Source: a phage
Sequence record: NC_101838.1
Length of the DNA stretch: 64,000 nt
Direction: 5' to 3' (one strand)
A program made the translations under genes and the position numbers. Every line of letters begins with the position of its first letter. Within the stretch, counting starts at the first letter, position 1. The notes below the pieces were generated by a model. The model worked only from the letters and a program-made list of their open reading frames with translations, was not told the DNA's origin and did no database searches. Below, one piece after another: positions 24,192-44,911 of the stretch.

Positions 24192-24407
24192 ATGATCACT
24201 AACAAAACAGGCAAAACAGAATTTTTACGCAACTTACAGATCGGTAAGTCTGAGATCTGGTATTGCACTAAAACACCCCGTGACGAAATGAAAGACTTCA
24301 CCGCCACGCTGCAACGGGTAAAGATATCCATCACGCAGAAAAAGGCCTTACTAGTGGTGGAAGGTGAGATCCCCCAAACCGTTGTTATAGTTGAGCGTAC
24401 AGCATAG
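24192..24407 (+). CDS. hypothetical protein
   Basis: ORF. Confidence 0.45.
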   Translation: MITNKTGKTEFLRNLQIGKSEIWYCTKTPRDEMKDFTATLQRVKISITQKKALLVVEGEIPQTVVIVERTA

Positions 24408-24498
24408 TTTAATTTATACAGATACCTTAAAATTAACCAACAAAGCATAAACAGGCGGTTACCGCCGCCTTAAACGTAGCAGAAAGAGGATAGACACA

Positions 24499-24783: not shown

Positions 24784-24785
24784 CC

Positions 24786-24920
24786 ATGAGAAAGATAATC
24801 ATCACCTTGGGGATTGTGGCGGGATCGCTGGCGCTCTTTCTCCTTATGGTTAGGTATGTGCTGATCGGTATTGTCCTGGTAGTCAGCGATCTGTTGGAAA
24901 CGGTTGGCACCTTGTTTTAA
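24786..24920 (+). CDS. small membrane peptide (44 aa, not in ORF track)
   Basis: ATG 2 nt after upstream stop; hydrophobic. Confidence 0.35.
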   Translation: MRKIIITLGIVAGSLALFLLMVRYVLIGIVLVVSDLLETVGTLF

Positions 24921-24932
24921 AGAGCGGTAAAA

Positions 24933-25124
24933 ATGAATATCGAACAAGTTAGAAAGGTATTGGCGGTACTGCGTTATCATAATCATAGAAAGGTCATAGA
25001 CGATCCTGATTATGTCGATTCAAGCCTGGAAGGGGATACACTACAAGCCATAAGTAACATGCAAGAATTGCTAAAGCGCATGACAGAGAAAAACCGACCG
25101 GACTACATAGGCGAAAAAATATAA
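24933..25124 (+). CDS. hypothetical protein
   Basis: ORF. Confidence 0.45.
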   Translation: MNIEQVRKVLAVLRYHNHRKVIDDPDYVDSSLEGDTLQAISNMQELLKRMTEKNRPDYIGEKI

Positions 25125-25140
25125 TCCTTATAAACTACAA

Positions 25141-25172
25141 AACAGGGCTTGCAATGGTCCTGTTTTTTGTTA
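25141..25172 (+). terminator. rho-independent terminator
   Basis: AACAGGGC-loop-GTCCTGTT followed by TTTTTGTT. Confidence 0.6.
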
Positions 25173-25255
25173 TACTTGTTTCACGGCAGGCACCTGGCGA
25201 CGGGGGGGGGAGACAATCACCGGGTGTGCCTGCTATATAAAAACTATAAAAACCG

Positions 25256-25284
25256 TTGACATCTGCCAGGTGGTGGGGTAGCAT
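25256..25284 (+). promoter_or_regulatory. sigma70-like promoter
   Basis: TTGACA-N17-TAGCAT. Confidence 0.45.
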
Positions 25285-25339
25285 TTATCTCGAAGGGGGC
25301 AAAAGCGCCCACACAACAACTGGAAGAGAGGAAAACGCC

Positions 25340-25612
25340 ATGTTAAGCTGGATTAACCAAGAAGTTGAATCACGTTTTAATGCTATTTGGGATCTCATCG
25401 AAAAAGAGGACGGAACATCAAGCCCTTATCTCAATAATCTTGAATTCCATTTCGTGGAAGCGATGAACGCAGAACATGATCACGAAGGTGGTGCGGATGA
25501 ATTCGCTAAAGGATATGGCTTCAACAATGCCAACGAAATGATCGAGGCGGTTGTACTCCAGGCTGAGGAAGATTATCAATTAAAAACGCTTGAATTCTGC
25601 CGCCGTAAGTAA
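25340..25612 (+). CDS. hypothetical protein
   Basis: ATG after GAGAGGAAAA RBS (track start 25256). Confidence 0.5.
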   Translation: MLSWINQEVESRFNAIWDLIEKEDGTSSPYLNNLEFHFVEAMNAEHDHEGGADEFAKGYGFNNANEMIEAVVLQAEEDYQLKTLEFCRRK

Positions 25613-25674
25613 TAAGATAATGACACGGGCCAAAAGGCCCACTAAACAAAAACCACATAAAGAGGAAAAACATC

Positions 25675-25938
25675 ATGAAACGCCTTGATCAGCTCAAATT
25701 AGTTCAATATATGGCTTATCGTGTTCTTGAAGTCCAGAAAGGTAGCAAAAAAGAGGTTTGCGAGAAAGCTTATAAGATCTTCACTCGCAAAAAAGATGAC
25801 TGGATGCTGCGCCAGACTAAAAAGGCTGACATCTTGGGGTACCTGGAAGAAGAGATCCGCCTTGAAGAGCAAGAAGAGATCCGCCGTAGTGAGGCAGATT
25901 ATCAGGCAGCTTGGGAAAACTGGATGAGCAACAAATAA
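25675..25938 (+). CDS. hypothetical protein
   Basis: AAAGAGGA RBS. Confidence 0.55.
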   Translation: MKRLDQLKLVQYMAYRVLEVQKGSKKEVCEKAYKIFTRKKDDWMLRQTKKADILGYLEEEIRLEEQEEIRRSEADYQAAWENWMSNK

Positions 25939-26003
25939 TACAACAAGTTACGGTCAGGGGGTAATAAAGCCCCTTGATCACATAAAAATTATGCTATCCC
26001 TGG

Positions 26004-26032
26004 TTGACAGGGATCGGCAGTTTTGCTATATT
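26004..26032 (+). promoter_or_regulatory. sigma70 promoter
   Basis: TTGACA-N17-TATATT. Confidence 0.55.
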
Positions 26033-26081
26033 CTTTTTTGAAGGGAAGTTGTAAGAAAATTAACTAAGAGGTAAAAACACC

Positions 26082-26501
26082 ATGAACATTAAATCTAATA
26101 ATCCGGCATATAGCTTTGATAACGCTTTTTGTCACGGTCCGGCGGCGAAAGGATTCGAAATCGATGGTAAACTAATTATTGTCAATGTTGACGGGGAAGA
26201 GGTTGCAGTATATCCGGTGGCAGACGTAAAAAGCCGTTTACAATGCCGCATGGATGTTACCGCCTATCAGCTTGATCCGGTTCGCATAGTTGCCCTGGTC
26301 CTGGAAGAAGAAATTAAAGCCATGCACCATAGCAACAGGTTTATTGGTGACGCTCAGGATAATATGAAGGTGTGCCGCCATAAAGTTAATGAAGTGCTTA
26401 AAGAGTACGGCTATAAAGATCTTATGATCAAACGTGATGAAAAATTCCGCTACCGTAACGACCTGGCAAATCGGATTTTTGAAATATACGAATCATTATA
26501 A
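26082..26501 (+). CDS. hypothetical protein
   Basis: AAGAGG RBS. Confidence 0.55.
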   Translation: MNIKSNNPAYSFDNAFCHGPAAKGFEIDGKLIIVNVDGEEVAVYPVADVKSRLQCRMDVTAYQLDPVRIVALVLEEEIKAMHHSNRFIGDAQDNMKVCRHKVNEVLKEYGYKDLMIKRDEKFRYRNDLANRIFEIYESL

Positions 26502-26519
26502 TTTTTTAACTGAATTATC

Positions 26520-26546
26520 AAGGGGCTTAGCCCCTTTCTTTTTGTC
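26520..26546 (+). terminator. rho-independent terminator closing the plus-strand block
   Basis: AAGGGGC-TTA-GCCCCTT followed by TCTTTTT. Confidence 0.65.
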
Positions 26547-27464
26547 TGCTCTTCCCCCTACCATAAACGGCCCTACCTGGAAAGTGGAATAATTGACGAG
26601 CCATCAATCCCACACACTGTACAAACATACATGTAAAATAGCTATTGCATAACCTTTCATTGTGTGGTAGCGGTGCTATTTTTTACCAGTTTTCCTTCCA
26701 AAATTGCACGTAATGCAGCTATTGCATAAATTTTAACCTGATGCATATCTTCAATATCTTGTCAACAAATAAAAATTCTTATAAGTCATACACTTATACC
26801 CCCACAAAAGCGTTCTCTACGTGAAAAATCGGGCATAACTATAGCCGCCAGATCTCAGAATTTACGTACGCTCGCCATTCTATAGCCTGCTAAGTATTTA
26901 TTCCAACCATAGAATAATGGAATAGTCAATACCTGAATAAAATAATTATTCGTTTAAACTGCATAACATAAATCAGCTCAGGTGTCAACATTTTTCGTAA
27001 ACAGTCTTAAATTGTCACTGTGAGTTATCATAAACAGAGAAATCTTTAGTCGTCTAATGTTTACTGTACGTTACTATACTGACTGGAATCATTAGATGAC
27101 TAATAGAAAGATAAGAAATAATTAACGATACAATTATTTTACCTGTAACAATAAGGCAACTATGCAAACGAATGGCATGGCGCGACGGAGTCGCGACATA
27201 ATATAAAAGCAGTAACCATCACCCCCGTGATAGTTTGTCTGCAAACTATTAATCAGATCATAGTTGCCTTGTATTTAGTTAATCATGACATAACAAGCAA
27301 GGCAACTATAGATCTTCTAATAGTTGCCCTGCTTTTATATTATGTCATGCTAATTATAATCAGTGCGATTATTGTCATGCAAACGAATGGCATGGCTTAT
27401 CATCTCTGTGTAAACAATCTATGCGTGAACAGTGAAACATGAAATAATAACAGTCGTTATTGTG

Positions 27465-27520
27465 TCAAGTATTCCGATTGTGTCACCATTGTGTCTAAAG
27501 TGTCATATTGTGTCAGACAA
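27465..27520. repeat. four closely spaced ATTGTGTCA-type direct repeats
   Basis: ttattgtgtcaag, attgtgtcacc, attgtgtctaa, tattgtgtcagac in tandem. Confidence 0.5.
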
Positions 27521-27969
27521 GTTTTTCTCCTCTTTGTCAAGTGCTGCATGAAAAATTTACAAACTGGTATGGTAGCATTTTTGCGGACCTGTTTACATTC
27601 AGGAGTGTATGTATAATCCTTGTTGTGTGGGCGTTTATACGTCTGGACGGTCAGAAGTCTGCAGGTTAATATCTAATCTATTGGCTGCTAACTATATCCC
27701 ACACAAATGATAAGAAATATAATTGTTATATGCGTAAACTGTAACTCATGTTATCAATCCCTGTATGGATCGCCAGTGGTGCGCATAATGGGTATTATGT
27801 TAAATTGCCCGTAATGATAAAGGTTCTCACAATGATAGGTATTCTCATTCACCCTCACAAAATAGATTGCAAATGTTGTGCCACTGTGTGAACGGCCTCA
27901 CCTATTAATTTGCCTCACTGCCTCGATATTTGAGAATTATTATAAGAATGAGAAGTATTCCCATTCCGT

Positions 27970-28330
27970 CCGCCTGGCAGCACTCCTGTAGGTCCTGCAA
28001 GGACTCTAGCTTTCAGCTAGACCCTTCGGGCCTCCCTGTAGGTCAGGTCAAAATCGGGGTAGAATTGGGCCTATTCAGATATTTCTGGCTGACTCTTCAG
28101 GTCTGTGTGGGAAAAGCCAACCTCTCCGGCGGGGCAGGGGGATATCTGCGGGAAAATTGCAGGTCAATTAAAAAATTTACGTGGTATATGAAGCGCTCTT
28201 CAGGTAAGGCATGTATTATGGGATGAAACCCTCTTCAGGCAATGATATTTGTGGGTGTGATATTTGCTGGAAAGCCAGATATGACGGGACTCCCGGCGGG
28301 GCAGGGGTGGTACAGACAGGGAAAATATGA
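27970..28330. repeat. degenerate repeat cluster in non-coding DNA
   Basis: Recurring CCTGTAGGTC (x2), CCGGCGGGGCAGGGG (x2) and CTCTTCAGG units. Confidence 0.45.
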
Positions 28331-29005
28331 AGGATGTGGTTGGGTAGATTGATCAGACAGGTAGAGTATGGAATATGTTACAAGTATGTTAAATATGGAG
28401 GTTGAATATCTGTAGGATTTGTGTGTAAAATCAAAGACTTAAGTGGTGTTGTGGTATTTTCTATAAATAATTCAAGTTTAATAGGCAATATTTGTCTCTA
28501 TCCGCTTTGTGTGGTAAACAGATTCAGATTAGATTGGTTTACAAGTGTATACATAATATACAAATTAAAGATACAAGAAACCCCCCCTCCCCCCTTCGGC
28601 TACCATTCACCTTTTCCTCTGACTGGTACTTAAACACTTATTCAGACTCTTCAGGTTATCACCCATATATCATATGGCAGTGACTGGTGTCCTCCGGCCC
28701 CTCTTTCGTCACCCGTCCGCTTCGCCATGCTAATGCCATAGCTAATGGTTCGGTTGTTCACCCTGTTCACTCAGGTGTATCTCTATACCCCTTCAAACCG
28801 AAGAGAACAGAAAACCCGAATTACTCGGTAAAAGAAAAGAGAAGAACTTAATTTTATCAGGATAGGCAAGAATGTCAAGGTATGACTGCTCACTAAACAA
28901 GCAAACAGTCATGTGTGGGAGGTAAGTGATTGTGGTGGTAGGAAATTTAGTTGAAAGATGTGTTATAGGTGCTTCCAGCACTTTAGCCGGGCAGCTAATT
29001 GTGTG

Positions 29006-29342: not shown

Positions 29343-29555
29343 TCATAGTCTACCACCTCTGAACTCTTCGTGCTCAGGCATAATAGAGAACCAGATATCT
29401 ACGATGTCTTCCCACGTTAGGTCATCAGCCTCAGGATCTACCTGGAGCGAAGATGGAGAATCTTCAGAATCTAAGTTTTCCTCTTTCACTGGCTCAGCCA
29501 AGGGACATATAGTCACTCCTTTGGATGTCTCTTCAGATGCATGTGTGTTTATCAT
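29343..29555 (-). CDS. hypothetical acidic protein
   Basis: ORF. Confidence 0.4.
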   Translation of the reverse strand: MINTHASEETSKGVTICPLAEPVKEENLDSEDSPSSLQVDPEADDLTWEDIVDIWFSIMPEHEEFRGGRL

Positions 29556-29668: not shown

Positions 29669-29699
29669 TGTGGATACTATCACTGGATCGGTAATGTGT
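29669..29699 (-). promoter_or_regulatory. sigma70 promoter for the last minus-strand genes
   Basis: On minus strand TTGACA-N17-TAGTAT; the -35 lies inside a tandem 17-bp direct repeat. Confidence 0.5.
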
Positions 29700-29883
29700 C
29701 AACAGTCGGTAATGTGTCAACAGAAACGCCGCGAGGGTTTGGTTAAAATCCGAGCGTATGGTGATTTGGGTCAAAACGGACGTGCGTTCTCGCTACGCTC
29801 GAAATATGGAGTTGTTTGTAGGGAGCTCTTAAACGCTCTGTAATGAGATTAACTGCCCAAGGTATGCAATCGTGCACCAGATA

Positions 29884-29933: not shown

Positions 29934-30245
29934 CTATACCCACGAGGGCTTATCAAGGTTGGAGTAGCTGAAAGGTGTCAAAAGGTGACTGTCAAAATCT
30001 CTCAAACTATCCAAATCTTTTTCCTCGTCCTGACACCATCTGTGCCTACATTTGTTGTTGTAGTGCATGGAATGCATAGCGTTCTGCAACTTAACAGGCA
30101 CAAGTGATTCAGGAGTAGATAGTATTGTTGGGTATGCCAGAACCACCTCAAACAGTGGAAACACATCGAAACTAAAGTCTACCTCTGCAGAGGTTGATGG
30201 CATGTAGGAGTATTTAGCCGCCTTTGTAGACATAATCCACCTCAC
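29934..30245 (-). CDS. hypothetical protein
   Basis: ORF, overlap-coupled. Confidence 0.45.
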   Translation of the reverse strand: MRWIMSTKAAKYSYMPSTSAEVDFSFDVFPLFEVVLAYPTILSTPESLVPVKLQNAMHSMHYNNKCRHRWCQDEEKDLDSLRDFDSHLLTPFSYSNLDKPSWV

Positions 30246-30574
30246 ACAGGTTTGATAATACCTTCACCGAATAGCTCTTCGTATCTAATCTTGTCCGGAT
30301 CCCACTCCTGGATAATTTCGAAGACAATATCCAACCCAGGGACAATCACTTCTCCAGTGTCAAGCTTAGCAAGAACAAAACCGGAAGGTTGAATGGTTTC
30401 CCAGTTACGGCGATCAGAATAAAATACTTCGAAAATATCACCAACCTCAATCCGTTTCTGTTGCTCAAGATGCTCAAGGTTCTCTTTCATACGGATGCAG
30501 CGTATTTTTCGTGCAGGCCATAGACCACCTGCATCACGTTCATTCAATTCTTTTACAGTGATCGGTATACCCAT
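30242..30574 (-). CDS. hypothetical protein
   Basis: ORF. Confidence 0.5.
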   Translation of the reverse strand: MGIPITVKELNERDAGGLWPARKIRCIRMKENLEHLEQQKRIEVGDIFEVFYSDRRNWETIQPSGFVLAKLDTGEVIVPGLDIVFEIIQEWDPDKIRYEELFGEGIIKPV

Positions 30575-30629
30575 CTCAAATCTCCTTCATAGATAGTAAA
30601 AAGAGGGGCCCAAGCCCCTCTATTTGTCA

Positions 30630-30935
30630 TTATTCTACAGAGCGTTTGAACAGAATGTCTGCCTCGGACATGTGCTCAACCTCTTCTTCGATTTTAGCTC
30701 GACGTTTTTCAGCCTCATAGCGAATATCGAACTCGGTAGCCACCAGAGATTTGATGAATTTAGGAGAATACAGGTGATCCTGCTTCTCAACGAGAATGAT
30801 ATCCTTAATGGCATCTTTCAGATCTTTAATCTGAAGTTGGAGTTCCACCAGTTCTTCGATTGTCTTGCGAAGGCGATCACGCTCTGCAGTGTCAGAAGGA
30901 AGAGAGGTGAACAGTTCAACTTTAGATTTAGCCAT
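30630..30935 (-). CDS. coiled-coil protein
   Basis: Charged heptad-like sequence. Confidence 0.5.
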   Translation of the reverse strand: MAKSKVELFTSLPSDTAERDRLRKTIEELVELQLQIKDLKDAIKDIILVEKQDHLYSPKFIKSLVATEFDIRYEAEKRRAKIEEEVEHMSEADILFKRSVE

Positions 30936-30963
30936 AGTAAGAGTCTCCTTATGTTGTTTTAAA

Positions 30964-31215
30964 TTAACGTTCTACAAAAATACCGTTCAGTTCAATAACC
31001 AGGAATTTCTGGTCTTCACTGTCGTCTCGTGCCAGCACCTCACAGACGTATCGGTCATCTCCATCATCATCGCAGTCAAATACAAGACTGAGGACTTTAT
31101 CATGATAAACCTTCGCCACTACCGCCTCGTAAGTATTGCCGATTGTGAATCCAAGATAATCTCCGATGCATTTGACAACAACATGGTCGCCAGCATTCAA
31201 GTCAATCTTCGTCAT
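30964..31215 (-). CDS. hypothetical protein
   Basis: Internal ATG after AAGGAG RBS (track 30964..31281). Confidence 0.45.
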   Translation of the reverse strand: MTKIDLNAGDHVVVKCIGDYLGFTIGNTYEAVVAKVYHDKVLSLVFDCDDDGDDRYVCEVLARDDSEDQKFLVIELNGIFVER

Positions 31216-31370
31216 TACTGCGCTCCTTGGGTAATAATACTGTATGTAAAACTTTAACCAGAGATGTGAATAACGCCCCAAAACACACCGATAGCGCTAA
31301 AACAGACAAGGCCATCATTAAAGCTTCAGTAAAATCAGTCACTCCTCACCTCTTGTTAGTCACTATACTG

Positions 31371-31634
31371 TCATTTATCCTTGCCGTCAAGAACTTTTTT
31401 AAATCTTTCAGGGATATCGCCTGTTCTTAGATAGCTCATGACCTCACAAGGTTCCCACTTGAATTTCTTACAAAGCAGGGCGGCTGAGATTGTTTCATTG
31501 CGAAAAGAAAGGATATTAATATCCCATTCTGAGAACCCCAACTTCCGAAGGGTAGCTACAGAAATCCTCACCGCAACCCAGCAGCAAAAACATGCAACAA
31601 ACGCCACTGCTATAACCCACATCAGGATGTTCAT
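31371..31634 (-). CDS. membrane protein
   Basis: Hydrophobic N-terminal helix. Confidence 0.5.
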   Translation of the reverse strand: MNILMWVIAVAFVACFCCWVAVRISVATLRKLGFSEWDINILSFRNETISAALLCKKFKWEPCEVMSYLRTGDIPERFKKVLDGKDK

Positions 31635-31723
31635 ACAAGCACCTCACTGAAATACAAGACACAGTGTTAAGGTTACAGACCAGCAAATAATTAACAGTGC
31701 CGTTGCAACCTTGGCAAGATTTA

Positions 31724-32011
31724 TCATAGTGCCTCTAAGATTTCATATCCTTCGGGTCGGAATACAAGCCACTCCGTGGCTCCGTTTGGTCGATACGCTT
31801 TATACAGAACAACCTGATCTCGGCACATGCACATAGCTACATAGTTTTCATCCACACCTGCAGCCTGCATTGCAGCTTCTTCTCCGGCAACTGCTTTGCT
31901 TACAACCTCCTTAGTAGGCAGGTGTGCGATCAGCTCGTCACCATCATTAATTCCAAAATGGCTGAGTTCTCCATTGGTATCTTTAATCTTAATCTTAACC
32001 AGATCTTTCAT
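31724..32011 (-). CDS. hypothetical protein
   Basis: ORF. Confidence 0.5.
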   Translation of the reverse strand: MKDLVKIKIKDTNGELSHFGINDGDELIAHLPTKEVVSKAVAGEEAAMQAAGVDENYVAMCMCRDQVVLYKAYRPNGATEWLVFRPEGYEILEAL

Positions 32012-32340
32012 TAGTCTTCCTCCAGGTTCAAAGGCCCTAAGATTTCATATGCCAGATTAGAAGTTACCAGAGGGTCTTCTGCATCTTTAGTATTATACCA
32101 CCCGTGAATAACCAGAGTCCCACTCTGTTTCATATCTAACTGGAACTGTTCTGCAGTTTCCTCATCCATCTCTAAGATCTCCATAAGGTACTTGATGTTA
32201 GGAAGGTATGCAGCTGTTACAGTTCCCTCTACCAGACCTTCGGGCCAACCTACATCCGGATGACAAGTAGGAACCAGGTTGGTCAGCTTAATGGTGTACG
32301 CTTTTTCTGCACGAGCCTTCAGTAACTGGTCAATCTTCAT
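32011..32340 (-). CDS. hypothetical protein
   Basis: ORF, stop/start overlap. Confidence 0.5.
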   Translation of the reverse strand: MKIDQLLKARAEKAYTIKLTNLVPTCHPDVGWPEGLVEGTVTAAYLPNIKYLMEILEMDEETAEQFQLDMKQSGTLVIHGWYNTKDAEDPLVTSNLAYEILGPLNLEED

Positions 32341-32690
32341 TATTCGTCCTCCTCTTCGGTGCCTGCTTCCAGTAATAAGTTAAGAATATCTTCTGCACAA
32401 GGCTCATAGAACTCTTGGCCTTCATTATCGATGATTTTGTAGTCATCTCCGCGAATAATCAGAGGATCACTCTCAAAATTATCGAGACCTTTAACAACGA
32501 CAACACGATCGATTGCCATCATTGTAAGAACTTTATCGACATCTTCCTCTGCTACACCATACTGCAGCAGAATGTCTTTGGTAGGAGGAACAGCATCCAC
32601 CACAACACCGTTACCAAAACCTTCCGGTAAGTTAGCTAAAATATCTTCCGGAACCACACTAACATCAAAACCAGTAATTTCTACTTTCAT
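32340..32690 (-). CDS. hypothetical acidic protein
   Basis: ORF, stop/start overlap. Confidence 0.5.
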   Translation of the reverse strand: MKVEITGFDVSVVPEDILANLPEGFGNGVVVDAVPPTKDILLQYGVAEEDVDKVLTMMAIDRVVVVKGLDNFESDPLIIRGDDYKIIDNEGQEFYEPCAEDILNLLLEAGTEEEDE

Positions 32691-32951
32691 TTACAGCACC
32701 TCTTCGTCAACTACTTCATAAAAATGGCCTGGGATTGCAATAGCGTTCTCACCTTCACCTACAAACACAGTTCCGTCAAGAATCAACATCATAAGAGTTT
32801 CTGGAATATCCTCTTCCTGAACGTTGCCAAAACCTTTAATCAGCTCGTAGGTTGGAAGATTTACCTCTAAGATGTCACCATCTTTAGAGCGGAAATCAAC
32901 ACCATCCTGAATCTCTGCCATTTCAAGGTTTTTCAGTTTAATCTTCATCAA
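32691..32951 (-). CDS. hypothetical acidic protein
   Basis: ORF. Confidence 0.5.
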   Translation of the reverse strand: MMKIKLKNLEMAEIQDGVDFRSKDGDILEVNLPTYELIKGFGNVQEEDIPETLMMLILDGTVFVGEGENAIAIPGHFYEVVDEEVL

Positions 32952-33027
32952 TCAGTCTCCCGTCTTGTTAAGATGAAGGTATTATTTCACACAGGGTTGG
33001 CGTTGTCAACACCTGTGTGCAAGAAAA

Positions 33028-33423
33028 TTACTGAAACAGTGCGGATAAATTACCTTCTGGTGGGAACTTATCTGCCAAAAACGGTGTTAGCACAGTAGCC
33101 TTCTGAAGATCTGGGGTCCACTCGTTGTTCAGAACATCCCAGTAGTACGCAATGTTGCTGTGTGGGTGCCGCATTACGAACTTTTTCCCTTCGTAGTCAT
33201 CTGAAACCTCTACAGAAGAAATAACAACAGAATCTTCAAGGGTTTCTTCATAGAAAGATCCACCTTCAAATTTCCAACGAGATGCAAGAGCTCCTGCCTT
33301 GAACGCTGCAGATAACGGACTGTCGGCAAGAACATACATTTCTTGCACTCTGTCGCTGCGATCTTTGCTTCTTACGTTGTATACAGTATCTGAGCTATAC
33401 TCAACACGGTATAGGCTTACCAT
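33028..33423 (-). CDS. hypothetical protein, paralog of 35230..35628
   Basis: Shared motif HPxS..YW..W.TWTP. Confidence 0.5.
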   Translation of the reverse strand: MVSLYRVEYSSDTVYNVRSKDRSDRVQEMYVLADSPLSAAFKAGALASRWKFEGGSFYEETLEDSVVISSVEVSDDYEGKKFVMRHPHSNIAYYWDVLNNEWTPDLQKATVLTPFLADKFPPEGNLSALFQ

Positions 33424-33782
33424 TACCGCACCTCCTCAATAACTTCCACATCTGAGCCCACCACAAATGCAAAAGGACAGGTTTCATGAAAGACATCCGG
33501 ATCGCCGCCAAGCTTGCTAACAATCTCTCCACCACTAATAAACACAAGCTCACCGATATTCATCAGATTGCTGAAATAGTACCCATAATGATTAAAGAAT
33601 GCAGCAGGGTCAGGTAGACTAGTAGCCTCAAGCACTACATCAGTTGAGGTTACTTTCTTATCATAACCTCTCGCCTTTTGAGATGCAAGATCTGCAGAAT
33701 CCTCAGGCGACCGGAGATGCACAGGAATTGTTTCACCAATAAAGCGTACTTTCATATTATCACCCAACAACCATAGCTTCAA
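33423..33782 (-). CDS. hypothetical protein
   Basis: ORF. Confidence 0.45.
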   Translation of the reverse strand: MKLWLLGDNMKVRFIGETIPVHLRSPEDSADLASQKARGYDKKVTSTDVVLEATSLPDPAAFFNHYGYYFSNLMNIGELVFISGGEIVSKLGGDPDVFHETCPFAFVVGSDVEVIEEVR

Positions 33783-34023
33783 AAGGGGTCATGAACGAAT
33801 AAACGGCATCATCATCTGCTTCAGGGAATGCTCCCAAAGACTTCATGTCTGAGCCCTTGACAAATACAAGGTTTTGATCAAAAGCTTCTTGAGGATCAAT
33901 CCGATACATATTTCGTAGAATATCGCCTACCTCCTCATCAAGAGGTGAGTATGCTGTGCACGTTTTTCCGATCAAGCTTTGAGAATCAGGGTATCCACCT
34001 GAAGTTTTAAAATAAACAATCAT
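33760..34023 (-). CDS. hypothetical protein
   Basis: ORF. Confidence 0.45.
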   Translation of the reverse strand: MIVYFKTSGGYPDSQSLIGKTCTAYSPLDEEVGDILRNMYRIDPQEAFDQNLVFVKGSDMKSLGAFPEADDDAVYSFMTPFEAMVVG

Positions 34024-34114
34024 ATAGTATCACCTCTGGTAAGAGATTGGGATTCCTTTCCCACAAATAATTACAAACCTTCCTTATCGAGGAAGTATGC
34101 TAATCCAAGCAGGA

Positions 34115-34384
34115 TTATTCCTCTACAATCTCATACACATCCGGAGTTACAATCAACTCTTCTCCGTTACCCGGTGCAACAAACACCACCATGCCTTCAG
34201 GTGTGTGCTTTTTAGCCATCTCGATAACATCTTCTCGCAGAGCTGGCTCCATCAGATCAAAACCTTCACCCAGGGCATCACGAACCACCTTCATATAGTC
34301 AACTGGTTGTGCTTCGACAATCATACCTTCAACCAGTCCACAGTTTTTGTCTGCCAGCTCAGTTTTGAATAATTTAATTTTCAT
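34115..34384 (-). CDS. hypothetical acidic protein
   Basis: ORF. Confidence 0.5.
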   Translation of the reverse strand: MKIKLFKTELADKNCGLVEGMIVEAQPVDYMKVVRDALGEGFDLMEPALREDVIEMAKKHTPEGMVVFVAPGNGEELIVTPDVYEIVEE

Positions 34385-34521
34385 TTAGAGGTCTCCTCAA
34401 TTATTTGATATTAATAGCCGTAACCTAACACATTAACTACAACTGCGATTGCAAACATAATTTCAAAGCATGCAATCTCTACATTTGGGACTAATTTCTT
34501 GATCACACCCATTGTAGCACC

Positions 34522-34839
34522 TCATTCTCTAAAGTCAATCTTTACTTTGCCTTTCCCCTTACCTTTCTTTCCACCGCATTTAGCCAGTTGACGTGCTGCA
34601 ACATCTACCATACGGTCAGTTGCCTCGTAAGCATCACTGCCTTTAGCTTTGGCAATAACTTCTTTTCCAGAATTGTCAAAAATGAACGCCATAACTTCCT
34701 GGTGATCATTTTCAACTTTTACACTCACACGTGCATAGTTGGCAGAGGGATGCAAACGCTCCAGCTTAGACATTTTGTGGGAAATGAAAGACACCATACC
34801 TTCAGTGATTTCTACGTTGCCAGTGATTTCAATTTGCAT
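34522..34839 (-). CDS. hpf: ribosome hibernation promoting factor / RaiA (YfiA) family protein
   Basis: N-terminus MQIEITGNVEITEGM and overall pattern resemble bacterial HPF/RaiA; basic C-terminal tail. Confidence 0.6.
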   Translation of the reverse strand: MQIEITGNVEITEGMVSFISHKMSKLERLHPSANYARVSVKVENDHQEVMAFIFDNSGKEVIAKAKGSDAYEATDRMVDVAARQLAKCGGKKGKGKGKVKIDFRE

Positions 34840-34921
34840 AACGTGTTCCTTTTAAAGAAGAGGGAACCAAACCCTCTTTGAAAACAATGATACTAAATCT
34901 GAAGCGTTGTGTCAACAGTTT

Positions 34922-35212
34922 TTACAGATTGTTGTCGATAGTTTTTAAAATATCCACAGCAAGATCTGCCATTTTTCGAACATACTCTGCAAACTCAACA
35001 GGATCCTTGATCAAAGAATTCACAGGGTCGTACCCTAGAGCGTTCAAAATGGCTGCAGCATCTACAACCTTCTCATCATTTGCGAAGATCTCTCCATCAA
35101 ACTTGTAGGTCCATTTTGAGTCAATCTTGGCAGGGAATGATTGGTCAACGCTTGTTACACCATCCTTTTTAAACGCTCCGGTGTTATCAGTGTCTAGAAC
35201 TAAATCCATCAT
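34922..35212 (-). CDS. hypothetical protein
   Basis: ORF. Confidence 0.5.
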   Translation of the reverse strand: MMDLVLDTDNTGAFKKDGVTSVDQSFPAKIDSKWTYKFDGEIFANDEKVVDAAAILNALGYDPVNSLIKDPVEFAEYVRKMADLAVDILKTIDNNL

Positions 35213-35229
35213 GTTAGTACCTCACCGTT

Positions 35230-35628
35230 TCAGTTTAGCTTTTCTTCAACAACCCCATAGCTCGGGACAGAGTCAAGAGCTTTCTGGTTTAAAAGTGGTG
35301 TAGCAGAATCTGCAAACGGTGTCCAAGTTTTTGTTCTGGCATTCCAGTAATGCTTCACTCTGGAATCTGGATGCACTATAACAAAAACTTTTTCACTTGT
35401 CAACACATTAATTTCTTCTACACCCTTGCTGATAATTTCTCCGTCATAGCCACCAGTCTGGTATCCTTCGTACCAGGTTCTTGCATATGCATAGCCAGCC
35501 TGCCAGCATGCAGCCTCCTCCGAGGTGGAGACTACGTAGAAGTCTTTCTCAAATTCTGGGATACGCCCTTGCTTTACGCTCCAAGCTCCGCGAATTTTCA
35601 TTGTAACTTTGAACAGTTTATTTTTCAC
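35230..35628 (-). CDS. hypothetical protein, paralog of 33028..33423
   Basis: Shared motif VIVHPDSRVKHYWN..TKTWTP. Confidence 0.5.
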   Translation of the reverse strand: MKNKLFKVTMKIRGAWSVKQGRIPEFEKDFYVVSTSEEAACWQAGYAYARTWYEGYQTGGYDGEIISKGVEEINVLTSEKVFVIVHPDSRVKHYWNARTKTWTPFADSATPLLNQKALDSVPSYGVVEEKLN

Positions 35629-35640
35629 AACGGTTACCCA

Positions 35641-35895
35641 TCACAGCTCTACAATCTCTGCATCTGACCCTGCCCCAAAGGCATAATAGGATTCTTCCCC
35701 GAAATAATATTCCGGTGCACCAGCAGCGATCAGGTCTGATCCCAAGATAAACACCACGTTGTGGCCTACATAACTGTGATGTTGCCGCACAGGATCATCC
35801 CACGGCAACCCTTCAAAGTATACCGCAGGAACGACCTTTCCCTTCAGGAAGGATTGTCCCAAGTAGACGTTAGAATCAAGAATTTTAACCTTCAT
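35641..35895 (-). CDS. small protein, MKVK family member
   Basis: MKVKILDSNVYLGQ...DLIAAGA; paralogous to 35885..36112 and 39525..39758. Confidence 0.5.
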   Translation of the reverse strand: MKVKILDSNVYLGQSFLKGKVVPAVYFEGLPWDDPVRQHHSYVGHNVVFILGSDLIAAGAPEYYFGEESYYAFGAGSDAEIVEL

Positions 35896-36112
35896 TCTCG
35901 TCCTCCACTATCTCTACATCCTCACCAAGGGCAAAGTTGTAGGTCCACTGGCTGTCAAAGCAGTCCTGAGATGCACCAGCGGAAATAAGATCTGCACCTT
36001 TTATTTTTAAAAGGTCAGGATAATCTTCGTTAGGGATAGCGGTAAACACTTTCCCCACTAAGGGCTCCTGACCAATATAGAAGCTTGAATCTAAAACTTT
36101 AACTTTCATCAA
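35885..36112 (-). CDS. small protein, MKVK family member
   Basis: MMKVKVLDSSFYIGQ...DLISAGA. Confidence 0.5.
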   Translation of the reverse strand: MMKVKVLDSSFYIGQEPLVGKVFTAIPNEDYPDLLKIKGADLISAGASQDCFDSQWTYNFALGEDVEIVEDENEG

Positions 36113-36396
36113 CGGTCTCCCTCAGGCGGTTGTGGGACGTAAACACTGTTACGAATATCGTCAGCAGTGTAGTAATAAGTGGTTCCAACCCTATCTCGGG
36201 CTGCAATGTACTCTGCTATACCAATAAGTGCCATTGATTTGGTGGCGTATCTTCCCCACTCGTTAGCTCCCCAGTAGAATTTAGACCAGTAGGGAATAAT
36301 ACCGAACAAATATACCTTTTGACGAACTTCCCAGTAAGTGCCTTTTCCGACAAGTTTAAACTCTACTTCACTACTGTTAATCTTTTTCATTATCAA
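36109..36396 (-). CDS. hypothetical protein
   Basis: ORF. Confidence 0.45.
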   Translation of the reverse strand: MIMKKINSSEVEFKLVGKGTYWEVRQKVYLFGIIPYWSKFYWGANEWGRYATKSMALIGIAEYIAARDRVGTTYYYTADDIRNSVYVPQPPEGDR

Positions 36397-36689
36397 TCTC
36401 CCTCTACCGTGGTCGGATTGTCAGTAAGAAATTGAGCATTGGCTGGAGGCACGCCTGACATTTTCCACACAACCATAAGTTTGTAACCAGGAACTCTATT
36501 AAGTGCAGATCGAGTAGAGTTTGTGCACGTATACTTTCGCTTTCCAAACCCGTTCTCCATCATAATCCAGTACCCAGTATCTTTGTCACCAGGTATCGGT
36601 AGACCACCTTCATCAACCCACTGAATGGACCACGGCACGATGGCTACAGCTTTATATTTAAACTTTTTAAACCACTCAAAAAGTTTCAT
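36393..36689 (-). CDS. hypothetical protein
   Basis: ORF. Confidence 0.45.
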   Translation of the reverse strand: MKLFEWFKKFKYKAVAIVPWSIQWVDEGGLPIPGDKDTGYWIMMENGFGKRKYTCTNSTRSALNRVPGYKLMVVWKMSGVPPANAQFLTDNPTTVEGD

Positions 36690-36784
36690 AATTCAGCCTC
36701 GCATAGACATAATCACTATAAACAGGCAAACAATGAATCCGAATGCCACGCCACCCATAAACGTTAATATTGATGCAATCATAG

Positions 36785-36970
36785 TCAATCAGCCTCGCTT
36801 GGCAACTCTTCTACCTTAACATGCCGAAAAGTGTTACCGTAATGGTTGATCCATGACATCAGCTCGCTTTCTTGCTCTTCCTCTGGGATGAACTCTCGAA
36901 TGCTGACAAGTTTTAAGAAAACCCAATCACAATCTGCACCCATTCTACCAGACAGGCAATAGTGCTTCAT
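36785..36970 (-). CDS. hypothetical protein
   Basis: Internal ATG after GGGAGG RBS. Confidence 0.4.
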   Translation of the reverse strand: MKHYCLSGRMGADCDWVFLKLVSIREFIPEEEQESELMSWINHYGNTFRHVKVEELPSEAD

Positions 36971-36987
36971 AAAACCTCCCACCTGGT

Positions 36988-37182
36988 TTAGAATATTGCT
37001 TCTTCCATTGCACCTGAGAGCAACAAAGAGGTGATCTGGCTAACATTCATCTCAGACTCTACTTCCTCCCCTTTGAAAGGTTCGCGGCAGAATAGGACTG
37101 TTTCAGGACTTTTACTTCGAACAATATAATACAAATCATTCAATGTGTTGTAGTAATAAGTGTTAAAACGTAAGTTTTTCAT
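36988..37182 (-). CDS. hypothetical protein
   Basis: ORF. Confidence 0.4.
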   Translation of the reverse strand: MKNLRFNTYYYNTLNDLYYIVRSKSPETVLFCREPFKGEEVESEMNVSQITSLLLSGAMEEAIF

Positions 37183-37466
37183 TTTCTAGTCCCCTTCTTA
37201 GATTTTTGTGTAGAAACGCTTTCTGCAATACGAGACAAACGTTCTTCTGAAGCCTTGCCTATTCCAGGTTTTTTGAGTGGGTTATCTTTATGACCACACT
37301 CCAATTGGATATTGGATACCTCTCCAACCTTGTAAGTCAATTCTAGCAAAAGGTTGTCGTCCTTGTCAAATGTTCTTACGATAAATTTTTTATCGTTCTC
37401 CTGAACTTCGTATCGGGTACCCGCAGTATACAGCATGGTGCCATCCGCATAGGATATCCAGATCAT
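37179..37466 (-). CDS. hypothetical protein
   Basis: ORF. Confidence 0.45.
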   Translation of the reverse strand: MIWISYADGTMLYTAGTRYEVQENDKKFIVRTFDKDDNLLLELTYKVGEVSNIQLECGHKDNPLKKPGIGKASEERLSRIAESVSTQKSKKGTRK

Positions 37467-37810
37467 TGAACCTCCTTCTGCTGCAACAGCATTAACTCTT
37501 TGTTGGAGATTTTTACTGCTGTTTTTATTGTTCCATCTTCACGAAACCACGACCAGAACTCTACAGTGTCCCCACTGTCAAGCAAAGCATACCCGTGGTA
37601 GAAGTCTTTGTCCTTAGACAGTTTCTCATCTATGTCTGCATCGACACATTCGTGATCCATAGCATTTTGCCTGAATGCATCGGTTATACCAATGCACGCC
37701 TTGCTCTCAAGACTGGTATATCCGATATCTTTTAATTCAGTTTCCCAAGTCCAGTACCCTATAAAAGCTAAAACAGCTACCCACATTAATAACGTTTTAA
37801 TCTTTGGCAT
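37463..37810 (-). CDS. membrane or secreted protein (N-terminal hydrophobic segment)
   Basis: N-terminus LLMWVAVLAFIGYW. Confidence 0.5.
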   Translation of the reverse strand: MPKIKTLLMWVAVLAFIGYWTWETELKDIGYTSLESKACIGITDAFRQNAMDHECVDADIDEKLSKDKDFYHGYALLDSGDTVEFWSWFREDGTIKTAVKISNKELMLLQQKEVQ

Positions 37811-37872
37811 TCTCTCTACCTCTTTCTTAGTTTATTTCACTATGGCACATCCTTTGTGCCATATCTCAACCA

Positions 37873-38334
37873 CTACTTAAATAGTAGTCCAAAATAGTGC
37901 AAAATTAACAGAAGTTGAACTACACCTAGTGCAACGGCGAGTATGTTAATCTTAGAATCGAAAAACTTCTTAACTTTTACTCTAAAAGGTTCCTTAATGT
38001 CCTTTACGATCCTATTTATAGATGATTTCATATCCCTGATTACCATCCTAAACATTAGAGACGGATCTTCCTTCTCTGTAATAGAATCGAAAACATACTC
38101 TCTTCGGTCATAAGGGCCTCCAGATCTGCGTATTAACCTCTCCACAGAGACCTCGTACGACACACCTGTAACGTAATCATCTATGATAAGTAGTGACGGG
38201 TCTTTATCGTCCAAGGGTATTAAAGTTATCTTTCCAGATTTTGTTAAAATTTCTCCTTTTTCAAGCAAGGTGTACCAATGCTCTCTACCAAGATTGTTGA
38301 GGCACGTTTTTACATATTTAACAAACATCGTCAC
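37873..38334 (-). CDS. C-terminally membrane-anchored protein
   Basis: C-terminal hydrophobic helix ILAVALGVVQLLLILHYFGLLF. Confidence 0.5.
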   Translation of the reverse strand: MTMFVKYVKTCLNNLGREHWYTLLEKGEILTKSGKITLIPLDDKDPSLLIIDDYVTGVSYEVSVERLIRRSGGPYDRREYVFDSITEKEDPSLMFRMVIRDMKSSINRIVKDIKEPFRVKVKKFFDSKINILAVALGVVQLLLILHYFGLLFK

Positions 38335-38534
38335 CCCTCATCGCACGTCTGATATAACCACTCTATGAAATCTTGATACCATTCGCCCTCTGAGCGCTCC
38401 GTAGGCCAATAATCTTCACCCTCTCGTGCATTAAAATCTGAGTATTCAACTTTCCACTCCTTTACCAGCTCGTGGAGAAGGTTTTCAGCCTGCTCTAAAG
38501 ATTTATTTTTTGCCATTGCTGTCTCCTTTTTCAA
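38331..38534 (-). CDS. hypothetical acidic protein
   Basis: ORF. Confidence 0.45.
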   Translation of the reverse strand: MKKETAMAKNKSLEQAENLLHELVKEWKVEYSDFNAREGEDYWPTERSEGEWYQDFIEWLYQTCDEG

Positions 38535-38735
38535 GATAGTTATACATCAGAACTGCACCACCTAAGATGGCTACCAGTAACAATATCCCAGATAGCATCT
38601 CAATAAACATGGCTTGAAACACTGGAAGGTCTCCCTAAATTAACGCACCATTTTAAATACATGCTCTTTTCCCATAAAGGTGCCTGGCTAAGATCTGCGT
38701 AGAACGCAATCTCTTTAAGAACAGTATAGATAGTT

Positions 38736-38963
38736 TTAGGTGCGGTCTCCATCCCTACTCTCCTTCCTGATATTCTTGTAGTAATCAACTAGGCACATTA
38801 TTACGATGAAGATAACAACAGGCCAAAAAGGTGCAGCAGTGATGATGGTGATAAAATCATCAAACTTCACCCTTCGTCTGGACACGATGCATACACCTGT
38901 CAAGAATACCGCTGTTATAACGGACATTACCAGGTAACCTATTAGCACAACATTTATACTCAT
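38736..38963 (-). CDS. membrane protein (two hydrophobic helices)
   Basis: Internal ATG chosen; hydrophobic segments. Confidence 0.4.
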   Translation of the reverse strand: MSINVVLIGYLVMSVITAVFLTGVCIVSRRRVKFDDFITIITAAPFWPVVIFIVIMCLVDYYKNIRKESRDGDRT

Positions 38964-38994
38964 TGGTCCTCCCCTTTGTAGGTTAAATTGTATA

Positions 38995-39528
38995 CTACAA
39001 ATGGTCGCTGAGGGTGTCAAGAAAATTATCCCGTTCTTTCTCAGAGTTTTCATGTGTGTAGCTGAAAAACATATCGAGAATAACCTTATTGATATATTCC
39101 AGCTCCTCTGTGTTCAGATGCTTAGCAGGATCTACAATGACATCCCAAATATCATACAGACCACACTCATGATACCCATAACGCCACTCAATTGTCAAGC
39201 TGAGCGGCAAATCTTTACCTTCACAAACAACCTTCCATCTACATATGTTGGTATCTGGTCGTACCTGTGCACGGTAAACCTGCACAAAATCCAATTTGAA
39301 TTTGAGGTACTCGTCATACAATTTAAGCACAAAGCTCTCGATTTGTGGAGACACTTTTGCAGCAAACTGTGCGTATTTGTACTTGCACTGGATGATCTTT
39401 CTGCGTTTTGCAGTTAAATTTTTTGCCGCCAGTTGTTCTTCAGTGTATCTCCACCTACGATCAACAAACGCAACAGGGTCTTTGTCCCCATAGAGGTCTT
39501 CCCAGTTAATCAGAAGCATACCTGTCAC
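38995..39528 (-). CDS. hypothetical protein
   Basis: ORF. Confidence 0.5.
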   Translation of the reverse strand: MTGMLLINWEDLYGDKDPVAFVDRRWRYTEEQLAAKNLTAKRRKIIQCKYKYAQFAAKVSPQIESFVLKLYDEYLKFKLDFVQVYRAQVRPDTNICRWKVVCEGKDLPLSLTIEWRYGYHECGLYDIWDVIVDPAKHLNTEELEYINKVILDMFFSYTHENSEKERDNFLDTLSDHL

Positions 39529-39758
39529 TCCTCCACAACTTCAAGGCCTTTACCGCCTCGCTCTGGCAGATTACTTAAAGATAGGTAATACATATAATCA
39601 GGAGAGATCCTGCCAGACTCTGCACCTGCAGCTAGTAAATCCTTCCCTTTAACCAGGACAACATTCTCGTTTGCAGATAGCCGTTTTGCTTCCACAATTT
39701 TACCAACACAGTCAACCAAGGAAGGGTACCCTAAATCTGTAAGAAATTTAACTTTCAT
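39525..39758 (-). CDS. small protein, MKVK family member
   Basis: MKVKFLTDLGY...DLLAAGA. Confidence 0.5.
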   Translation of the reverse strand: MKVKFLTDLGYPSLVDCVGKIVEAKRLSANENVVLVKGKDLLAAGAESGRISPDYMYYLSLSNLPERGGKGLEVVEE

Positions 39759-39795
39759 GCTACCTCCTACCTACCGTCCCTGGTAAGATAAATTA

Positions 39796-40194
39796 TTACT
39801 GAACAGAGCGCGGTGCTGGGAAGGATAACTCTTCTAAAGAGAAGATTTCATTTCCTACCACCCAAGTTGCTGGGTCATCTGGATCAACAGGTTGGATAAT
39901 CATTACCTCATCCGCCTCGCACACACGTTTCCCACCCATAGTAGCGTCAGCCACTAACATACGCGGCTCTTCAGAAATGCACAGGTAGCCACCTCGGCCC
40001 ACTGTTCCTTCCACGGGATCCTGCCCTTTGACCACAATGAATACCTTCTCTCCTGTGGAGATATTACTTTTCACACTAACAGTTTGACCAACTTTAGATG
40101 TACCGATCTTGGTGGCTTCAAACATTAAATCCCGAATTACTGTTGCATAGTTGCCGGACACTTTCTTACCTTCTTTAGTAATCTCAATCTTCAT
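39796..40194 (-). CDS. hypothetical protein
   Basis: ORF. Confidence 0.5.
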   Translation of the reverse strand: MKIEITKEGKKVSGNYATVIRDLMFEATKIGTSKVGQTVSVKSNISTGEKVFIVVKGQDPVEGTVGRGGYLCISEEPRMLVADATMGGKRVCEADEVMIIQPVDPDDPATWVVGNEIFSLEELSFPAPRSVQ

Positions 40195-40463
40195 AATCTA
40201 GGCTCCTTAAATGAATCTATGTAATCAATTAAATCCCAAGCATCCCTATGACCTGTCAGAGGGTATACTTCTCCAAGAGGGATCATAGCAATAAGTCTAT
40301 CAAAAACCCAATCTGGACGCAACATTTTATGGTGATACTCCCACTCACCTTCTACAGACTTTTTCTGAGTGATCAGGATCTCTGTGTAGTGTTTCGCCTG
40401 TCTTGAGTAGATTGAGAATGACTTGTACATAAATGGCCCCCTCTTGTTGAAAACAAAATACAC
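40191..40463 (-). CDS. hypothetical protein
   Basis: ORF. Confidence 0.45.
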   Translation of the reverse strand: MYFVFNKRGPFMYKSFSIYSRQAKHYTEILITQKKSVEGEWEYHHKMLRPDWVFDRLIAMIPLGEVYPLTGHRDAWDLIDYIDSFKEPRL

Positions 40464-44204: not shown

Positions 44205-44678
44205 TTAGTCAACCTGAACCCAACCATCTGCTACCTTTTTAAACATTCTTTGGTTATCACTGCCTCTAAAGGGTTTTTTGGTGGGGTTATCTTTTTCGTA
44301 CTTACCGTCCATAATGTAATCAACACTATCTTTAATGTAATCGGGGACTTCTTCAAACAAATACCCTGTGTACACCCAGATAGTTTTTGTGTTGCCGAAG
44401 TGTTCACGGATAGCGCGAATGATCGAGTACATACCATCAATATTGTAAGGCGCTAAAGGTTCGCCACCGCATAATGTAACGCCAGTAATGTGTTTCGGCT
44501 TTATAGAGTGAAGTATACTCTCAATAGTGTCATTTGTTAACGGTTCCCCTTTAGCTGGTGACCAAACACTTTTGTTTTGGCAACCGACGCAGTGATGTGG
44601 GCAACCAGAACAGAACACCGTTGTCCTAATGCCTGGGCCGTCAACCATGCTACACTCTATAATATTAACAACATTCAT
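44205..44678 (-). CDS. nrdG: anaerobic ribonucleotide reductase activating protein NrdG (radical SAM)
   Basis: VDGPGIRTTVFCSGCPHHCVGCQN: CxxxCxxC cluster typical of NrdG. Confidence 0.8.
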   Translation of the reverse strand: MNVVNIIECSMVDGPGIRTTVFCSGCPHHCVGCQNKSVWSPAKGEPLTNDTIESILHSIKPKHITGVTLCGGEPLAPYNIDGMYSIIRAIREHFGNTKTIWVYTGYLFEEVPDYIKDSVDYIMDGKYEKDNPTKKPFRGSDNQRMFKKVADGWVQVD

Positions 44679-44911
44679 TCCTTATCCTCTTTTAGGTAAG
44701 GATATTCAGGCCCACAATAAGCTCTATCCAAGAAAACAGCTTCTTCCCCTCTGGAATCAGTAGATCTATAATACCCATCACCATGGTAACTAACGAACCA
44801 GTGGCACCCATCATCGCTTTCTACTGTTGTGGCTCTGTCCGAATGAAAGATAATTTCGTAATCCTTACCGAATGTAAACCATCTGTTAGCTTTTACACAG
44901 ACACCTATCAT
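44675..44911 (-). CDS. hypothetical protein
   Basis: ORF. Confidence 0.5.
   Translation of the reverse strand: MIGVCVKANRWFTFGKDYEIIFHSDRATTVESDDGCHWFVSYHGDGYYRSTDSRGEEAVFLDRAYCGPEYPYLKEDKE

Follow-up and report, generated by a model that had tools for sequence, protein, structure and literature searches.

Organization of the small-gene block

The window analyzed here is a 64,000-nucleotide stretch of phage DNA (sequence record NC_101838.1), and the subject of this study is the array of small genes that it carries at positions 29934-40463. Twelve of the 36 array genes were found to belong to three paralogous families, called A (five members), B (five members) and C (two members). The window comes from an Escherichia coli myovirus of the genus Vequintavirus (rV5-like phages). 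Region 29934-40463 shares 99.5% identity with Escherichia phage ime; of 122 phage records that match it, 115 extend over 80% or more of its length, with identities of 90-99%. The array matches gene for gene those of phages Bas56, APECc02, Pr121LW and Bas54, with the exception of the seven genes at 36393-38328, which are missing from Bas54.

Judged from GC skew and open reading frames (ORFs), transcription in the window is convergent: the plus-strand genes end at about 26.5 kb, and the minus-strand genes, read leftward from 64 kb, end at about 29 kb. The array forms the distal 10.5 kb of this long leftward cluster, downstream of the genes for NrdD/G, PhoH, ClpP and an adenine methyltransferase. 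With gene starts taken from annotated close relatives, the 36 genes lie between 29934 and 40430, all on the minus strand. They encode proteins of 29 to 174 amino acids (aa; median 91), 31 of them within 60-180 aa and five shorter than 60 codons. About 94% of the array is coding; 12 of the 35 gene junctions overlap and 8 have gaps of 0-10 nt. An array of more than 30 small, tightly coupled genes, as proposed in a sequence-only reading of the window, is thus borne out, since 20 of the 35 junctions either overlap or leave at most 10 nt.

Most array proteins are strongly acidic (isoelectric point 4.1-5.4), and four look membrane-anchored from their hydropathy. Scans of the region for tRNAs and Rfam families found neither. 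In Pfam, no small array gene except HPF had a match, and the gathering score of the SH3/KOW models was not reached; searches of PDB sequences with the array proteins gave nothing beyond HPF. PHROG matches are mostly of unknown function, the two exceptions being annotated as a transcriptional regulator and a virion structural protein (Table 1). The latter gene is absent from Bas54 and therefore cannot be an essential virion component.

Table 1. Features of the array and its borders, in window coordinates. log2FC: log2 fold change of transposon insertions in Bas54 on the clinical isolate versus K-12.
Position	Strand	Feature	Basis or remark
29909-29890		Strong terminator	
29934-30233	-	Last array gene, 99 aa	phrog_12072, unknown function; ortholog bas54_0140
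30242-31634	-	Five singletons: 30242-30574, 30630-30935, 30964-31215, 31202-31342, 31371-31634	dN/dS 0-0.31
30602-30621	.	Strong GC-rich hairpin, T-runs on both strands, bidirectional terminator-like	Inside the array
30630-30935	-	PHROG 'transcriptional regulator'	phrog_639, E=1e-21
31202-31342 and 31371-31634	-	Predicted membrane proteins	Hydropathy
31724-32948	-	Four tandem family-B genes: 31724-32011, 32011-32340, 32340-32690, 32691-32948	Acidic SH3-like barrels with two-helix insertion (predicted)
32981-33009	-	Sigma70-like promoter, TTGACA-17-AATAAT with TG extension	33 nt upstream of the family-B tandem
33028-34023	-	Cassette 1, A-A-C: 33760-34023 (A), 33423-33755 (A), 33028-33423 (C)	Family membership tests
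33028-33423	-	Family C, bas54_0150	log2FC -6.77, adjusted p 0, clinical isolate
33423-33755	-	Family A, bas54_0151	log2FC -6.17, adjusted p 0, clinical isolate
33760-34023	-	Family A, bas54_0152	log2FC -7.16, adjusted p 0, clinical isolate
34115-34384	-	Fifth, weakest family-B gene	Leave-one-out E=3.8e-3; hhalign 60%
34522-34839	-	Short HPF/RaiA-type ribosome hibernation factor	PF02482 (Ribosomal_S30AE); phrog_8990, E=1.5e-6
34915-34887	-	Sigma70-like promoter	Precedes HPF gene 34522-34839
34922-35212	-	96-aa acidic singleton	phrog_12029; dN/dS 0.11
35230-36109	-	Cassette 2, A-A-C: 35885-36109 (A), 35641-35895 (A, 11-nt overlap), 35230-35628 (C)	C gene with GTG start, or ATG at 35601
35230-35601	-	Family C, bas54_0157	log2FC -2.14, adjusted p 0, clinical isolate
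36109-36390	-	93-aa basic singleton	phrog_12340
36393-38328	-	Seven-gene sub-block, indel cassette	No Bas54 orthologs; PHROGs 8932, 2381, 14379, 11938, 11867, 7821
37873-38328	-	Annotated 'virion structural protein', hydrophobic C-terminus	Inside the seven-gene sub-block
38331-39519	-	Five genes: 38331-38516; 38503-38610, 38600-38752, 38736-38966; 38995-39519	The middle three very short or membrane ORFs
38995-39519	-	174 aa	'Putative glycosidase' in BASEL records; no Pfam match
39525-39758	-	Solo family-A gene, 77 aa	phrog_5009; closest to lambdoid-prophage member P0031
39796-40430	-	Two singletons: 39796-40194 (132 aa), 40191-40430 (79 aa)	Promoter-proximal array end
40483-40455	-	Sigma70-like site	Near promoter-proximal array end

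Three paralogous families

Pairwise similarities were assayed by blastp in a database of 35 proteins. In family A, 35885-36109 matched 35641-35895 (E=6e-15, 41% identity) and 39525-39758 (E=2e-6), and all three proteins have a G.DL..AGA core. In family C, 33028-33423 and 35230-35628 matched each other (E=7e-10, 28% identity) and both carry the motif HPxS..YW...W.TWTP. Scoring a protein against a profile that already holds it is circular. Therefore membership was evaluated by a leave-one-orthogroup-out test, in which the query and its orthologs were removed, the hidden Markov model (HMM) profile was rebuilt, and a search was run on 1826 ORFs drawn from the window and from four further Vequintavirinae loci. 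Members of family A were recovered with E-values from 1.5e-24 to 2.5e-6, and the family gained two genes, 33423-33755 (E=2.5e-6) and 33760-34023 (E=1.3e-8), in whose tests the best non-member scored 0.14 or worse. The MKVK family that the sequence-only reading had built from three genes thus has five members, and its family of 131-132 aa proteins stands with two.

The same reading had also noticed that several genes share acidic C-termini of the EIVEE or VVEE type. These genes form family B, a third family of five members. Leave-one-out E-values were 5e-6 for 31724-32011, 5e-4 for 32011-32340, 1.3e-8 for 32340-32690, 4.6e-6 for 32691-32948 and 3.8e-3 for 34115-34384, and the best non-member never scored better than 0.13 in the tests of either family. 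The two weakest genes, 32011-32340 and 34115-34384, are probable members on these profile scores. Between family A or B and any other array protein, no tested link was significant. All-vs-all alignment and HMM clustering, proposed earlier as the check on these families, thus gave statistically significant similarities.

Existing clusters hold these genes but miss the wider paralogy: PHROGs place three family-A genes in phrog_5009 and both family-C genes in phrog_7379, and put 33423-33755, 33760-34023 and every family-B gene in separate families. The rV5 genome paper makes no mention of paralogs, and the full paralogy (12 genes in three families) appears to be new.

Small paralogs were also seen outside the array. 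One set comprises 7844-8071(+), 8068-8262(+) and 44675-44911(-) (phmmer E from 2.5e-5 to 1.7e-4), and a further pair 8721-8975(+) and 8979-9299(+) (E=5e-6). Small-gene paralogy is thus general in this genome, and also extends across two oppositely oriented arrays.

A repeated A-A-C cassette

In the direction of transcription, the family genes follow each other in a repeated order. Two A genes (35885-36109, then 35641-35895) precede a C gene (35230-35628), followed by the 96-aa gene, HPF, a 33-codon ORF and one B gene; then come again two A genes (33760-34023, then 33423-33755), a C gene (33028-33423) and the four tandem B genes. Each family-C gene is therefore directly preceded by two family-A genes, an arrangement that, for five A and two C genes among 36, we estimate to arise by chance with a probability of about 1e-4. 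The PHROG clusters miss this cassette as well. The junctions of cassette 1 are a 4-nt gap and a 1-nt overlap; in cassette 2, the first gene, read as 35885-36112 from its ORF, more likely starts at the ATG at 36109.

No DNA similarity remains between the two cassettes, and the bit scores are only marginally supportive of positional orthology between them. An old segmental duplication is the likeliest origin. In a diverged relative (locus L024), cassette 1 is intact at 40-57% identity. The gene in the C slot of cassette 2 in L024 was considered as a family-C member and rejected, an unrelated gene having replaced it there.

Chimeric genes were found in two metagenomic Vequintavirus sequences. In P0014, the N-terminus of 35885-36109 is joined to the C-terminus of 35641-35895 inside the conserved DLI.AGA motif; in P0094, 35230-35628 is fused to its downstream neighbor 34922-35212. 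Unless they are assembly artefacts, these chimeras indicate ongoing unequal recombination or deletion.

Transposon sequencing of a close relative

Transposon sequencing (HIDEN-SEQ) has been applied to Bas54 (10.1101/2025.11.20.689424). This is phage MaxBurger (MZ501093), whose array orthologs are 86-100% identical to those of the window. On E. coli K-12, every array gene of Bas54, HPF included, was classified as 'Non-essential' or 'Intermediate' (10.1101/2025.11.20.689424). The last array gene, 29934-30233, is identical to bas54_0140 at 98 of 99 aa and lies at the same position. This ortholog was non-essential on K-12 and had a log2FC of -5.48 on a clinical isolate (10.1101/2025.11.20.689424). 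Together with a MoxR ATPase, it is reported to be needed to overcome DS-28, a predicted two-gene defence system of strain CFE311; the knockout was tested against cloned DS-28, and the effect is reported for Bas54 only (10.1101/2025.11.20.689424). The sequence-only reading had held that no array gene except HPF has an assignable function. HPF remains assigned, by PF02482; for 29934-30233 the statement is outdated by the anti-DS-28 role reported for its ortholog, and 30630-30935 matches a transcriptional-regulator PHROG.

In the resampling table of the same study, insertions in four further array genes were completely or strongly lost on the uropathogenic clinical isolate compared with K-12 (10.1101/2025.11.20.689424). 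These genes, bas54_0150, 0151, 0152 and 0157, map to the window at 98-100% and correspond to the three genes of cassette 1 and the family-C gene of cassette 2 (Table 1). Their depletion is absent from the main text of the preprint (10.1101/2025.11.20.689424). The remaining array genes were unaffected on the isolate: the two A genes of cassette 2 (bas54_0158 and 0159) and bas54_0166 (39525-39758) showed no phenotype, and the value for bas54_0153 (34115-34384, family B; log2FC -2.78) was not significant. The genes immediately upstream of the required 0140 and 0157, namely 0141 and 0158, tolerated insertions, and the authors argue against widespread polarity. Therefore the three genes of cassette 1 are probably each required on the isolate.

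Outside the array, small plus-strand genes at about 20000-26501 (orthologs of bas54_0123-0134), beside a gene-poor region, were also depleted on the clinical isolate, with log2FC values of -4.3, -5.2 and -2.9 for bas54_0132, 0133 and 0134. They may form a second conditionally important accessory cluster.

Predicted folds and occurrence of family A in other phages

AlphaFold2 predicted an SH3-like fold for the family-A protein 35885-36109 with high confidence (predicted local distance difference test, pLDDT, 91.9; predicted template modelling score 0.79), and the family-B protein 32691-32948 was modelled with a pLDDT of 87.8. Both models are small barrels of five strands that superpose on SH3/KOW domains. 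The family-B model has two helices between strands 2 and 3, at the same position as insertions in two family-A paralogs. The ten genes of families A and B are thus predicted to encode SH3-like proteins, an assignment that appears to be new; the fold class would be that of the SH3-like small beta-barrels (SH3, KOW, PsaE, retroviral integrase C-terminal domain). In BFVD, the family-A model superposes with a TM-score of 0.7-0.87 on uncharacterized proteins of 65-100 aa from T4-like and other phages. Such lookalikes occur in the T4-like phages RB49, Merlin, Sf20 and CS01.

Given the acidity of the array proteins, DNA-mimic anti-restriction proteins (Ocr, ArdA) were considered and rejected, because the predicted barrel is compact and because the BASEL study reports that Vequintavirinae, in contrast to T-even phages, are exceptionally sensitive to restriction-modification.

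An exhaustive HMM search of 1.84 billion representatives found family A in about 40 clusters. Most are stand-alone proteins of 63-87 aa with the pattern MKVKLLNDGGY...GKVV.A...G.ELI.AGA...Y.F...E.EIVEE; one is a two-domain fusion. A word-indexed search of 5.8 billion proteins returned almost only Vequintavirus contigs. The extension of family A came only from the exhaustive search. Outside the genus, the homologs occupy accessory positions and are often paired. Cluster P0031 (309 member sequences; 8001-8228 in loci L010/L011) lies among the small genes between the antiterminator Q and the holin/lysozyme cassette of E. coli lambdoid prophages, which is exactly the lambdoid 'moron' slot. Two other phage contigs contain small-gene arrays with two family-A copies each, and Vibrio phage CHOED has an adjacent pair. 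The lambdoid morons differ from the present case in being single-copy genes of temperate phages, whereas five copies are found here in a virulent myovirus.

Conservation and selection

In comparison with phage Pr121LW, the pooled ratio of nonsynonymous to synonymous substitution rates (dN/dS) of the array was 0.12, against 0.08 for ClpP, and individual paralogs ranged from 0.03 to 0.23. The pooled value shows that the array ORFs are real genes. Only one array gene, 36988-37182 in the seven-gene sub-block, is strongly diverged in Pr121LW. Over about 120 genomes, the array shows the same distribution of identities as two other 10.5-kb blocks, and L024, at 29-87% protein identity, keeps the gene order, all five A genes and all five B genes.

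The suggestion that duplicated small genes of this kind mark fast-evolving host-interaction or anti-defence loci therefore holds in part. An accessory role in host interaction is supported by the dispensability on K-12, the reported action of bas54_0140 against DS-28 and the depletion on the isolate. The low dN/dS, the ordinary identity distribution and the order kept in L024 argue against fast evolution within the genus.

The ortholog of 29934-30233 in L024 (10101-10424) has 34% identity, while neighboring genes have 61-86%. By this comparison of sequences, it is among the fastest-evolving genes of the block at the divergence of L024.

Megablast still finds the nucleotide-metabolism block in phages of Salmonella, Klebsiella and Cronobacter, whereas it no longer finds the array there. 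Families A, B and C were not found in 40-kb loci of Seunavirus, Mydovirus and Certrevirus; neither HMMs built from the five paralogs alone nor a richer profile of 33 sequences recruited anything there. The families are thus not subfamily-wide. At the level of sequence, the block is conserved inside the genus Vequintavirus and unrecognizable outside it.

For 18-20 public records that carry the name 'Campylobacter phage' (host C. jejuni), the identity to genomes of E. coli Vequintavirus phages is 92-98%, and their host assignment looks doubtful.

Expression signals and the adjoining gene-poor region

The 12 strongest sigma70-type matches in 27.5-42.5 kb all lie on the coding strand. Several are placed 20-50 nt upstream of genes, namely before the family-B tandem, HPF, 40430, 38966 and 31342. 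Such sites occur genome-wide, and the array is no richer in them than other parts of the window. The rV5 genome paper likewise describes promoter-like sites that follow the coding strand, and proposes that host RNA polymerase is used throughout infection. The block may be expressed from host-type promoters.

Beyond the array, 29688-29723 is a perfect 18-bp tandem duplication (two copies of TCGGTAATGTGTCAACAG). Its reverse complement contains TTGACA, so that the small gene 29343-29555 has two copies of a sigma70-like -35 box upstream.

Between the two convergent clusters lies a gene-poor stretch of about 2.5 kb (26502-29005), with low GC content (0.38), no Rfam match and scattered direct and inverted repeats, e.g. 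at 27146-27396. It is less conserved within the genus (90-95%) than the array and the flanking genes, and the rV5 paper labels it 'non-coding'. HIDEN-SEQ found no transposon insertions in its Bas54 counterpart (10.1101/2025.11.20.689424), which suggests an essential cis element.

Discussion

The results indicate that the block probably encodes host-specific accessory factors that are dispensable on laboratory E. coli and act at least partly against bacterial immunity. Twelve of the genes would derive from three old duplications, giving five stand-alone barrels of 74-110 aa (A), five barrels with a helical insertion (B) and two proteins of 131 aa (C). The small acidic barrels may be stoichiometric binders that block or sequester host proteins, e.g. 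sensors or effectors of defence systems. The core of the barrel and the G.DL..AGA turn would be retained, and the loop between strands 2 and 3 would hold paralog-specific insertions that set target specificity. In cassette 1, the A proteins may act jointly with their family-C partner. The binder role and the A-A-C unit are suggested by the fold, the charge, the gene order and the joint phenotype. A further step, which we put forward only tentatively, is that the A-A-C cassette is an undescribed multi-component counter-defence module, and that the A, B and C expansions are specificity variants, each neutralizing a different, strain-variable immune system of E. coli. If true, this would account for cassette 1 being indispensable on one uropathogenic isolate on which the other copies are silent.

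Several points weigh against a role in counter-defence. Seven of the twelve family genes have no phenotype on the one isolate with data, and the requirement on this isolate could reflect something other than immunity. Families A and B have no profile link (hhalign probability 5.7-9.5%, with only the N-terminal MK[VI]K strand aligned), so that a common origin is unproven and only the fold class is common to both. The transposon data come from a preprint whose authors followed up only bas54_0063 and bas54_0140. Moreover, the sheet of Extended Data Table 8 (Data S6) is titled 'K-12_vs_CFE303' and its command line uses '311' files; since the sheet after Data S6 repeats the same numbers, the stored file seems either to lack the CFE303 comparison or to carry it under a wrong label.

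The main alternative is that the block is a general host take-over module, in which the barrels and the phage HPF retune host translation or transcription in favor of phage gene expression, e.g. by binding to ribosomes, RNA polymerase or their factors. The HPF/RaiA gene indeed sits amid the family genes, ribosomal proteins and NusG/Spt5 commonly contain SH3/KOW-like barrels, and the sigma70-type promoters ahead of several units would fit the host RNA polymerase use proposed for rV5. However, a core function should show on K-12, where all array genes including HPF are dispensable with little fitness cost. The strain-specific requirement points to a strain-variable target, and the strong acidity speaks against direct binding of RNA. 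This explanation, weakened by the K-12 result and by the strain-specific requirement, is one that we regard as unlikely.

It might also be that the paralogs are largely redundant leftovers of duplication, and that the depletion of cassette 1 is a polar or positional effect on a single needed gene. The three genes are tightly coupled and depleted together, and the seven silent family genes would be expected from redundancy. Redundant copies would decay, however, whereas each paralog here has its own ortholog under purifying selection and is kept in the diverged relative at 29-74% identity. The tolerated insertions directly upstream of 0140 and 0157, together with the little polarity reported by the authors, also make this reading improbable. 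Finally, that the similarities arose by chance, or that the ORFs are not genes, finds some footing in the two weakest family-B links and is refuted by the pairwise E-values, the separation of members from 1826 decoy ORFs, the dN/dS, the confident AlphaFold2 models and the transposon phenotypes.

Counter-defence by accessory genes would place the block beside those of T4 and other large virulent coliphages, where HIDEN-SEQ likewise found long runs of packed genes of fewer than 150 codons that are dispensable on K-12. In T4-type blocks, individual genes are conditionally essential against particular defence systems, as reported here for the bas54_0140 ortholog. No sequence homology was found to any named T4 anti-defence gene, and the block is confined to the genus Vequintavirus. 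The existence of the block, its genes and its dispensability were already on public record, as was a function reported for one of the genes. What appears to be new, besides the paralogy and the predicted fold, is the recurrence of the A-A-C cassette and the way it coincides with a signal of conditional essentiality that had gone uninterpreted.

Phages of the rV5 type are isolated widely, and their use in therapy and biocontrol is under consideration, although about two thirds of their genes are without known function. A third of one 'dark' block is now accounted for by three families of duplicates, of which two have a predicted SH3-like binder fold, and these families are tied to existing transposon data that had so far remained uninterpreted at the family level. 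The orthologs of bas54_0150, 0151, 0152 and 0157 become the next anti-defence candidates. An anonymous list of genes is thereby turned into a testable hypothesis on how rV5-like phages cope with natural E. coli strains.

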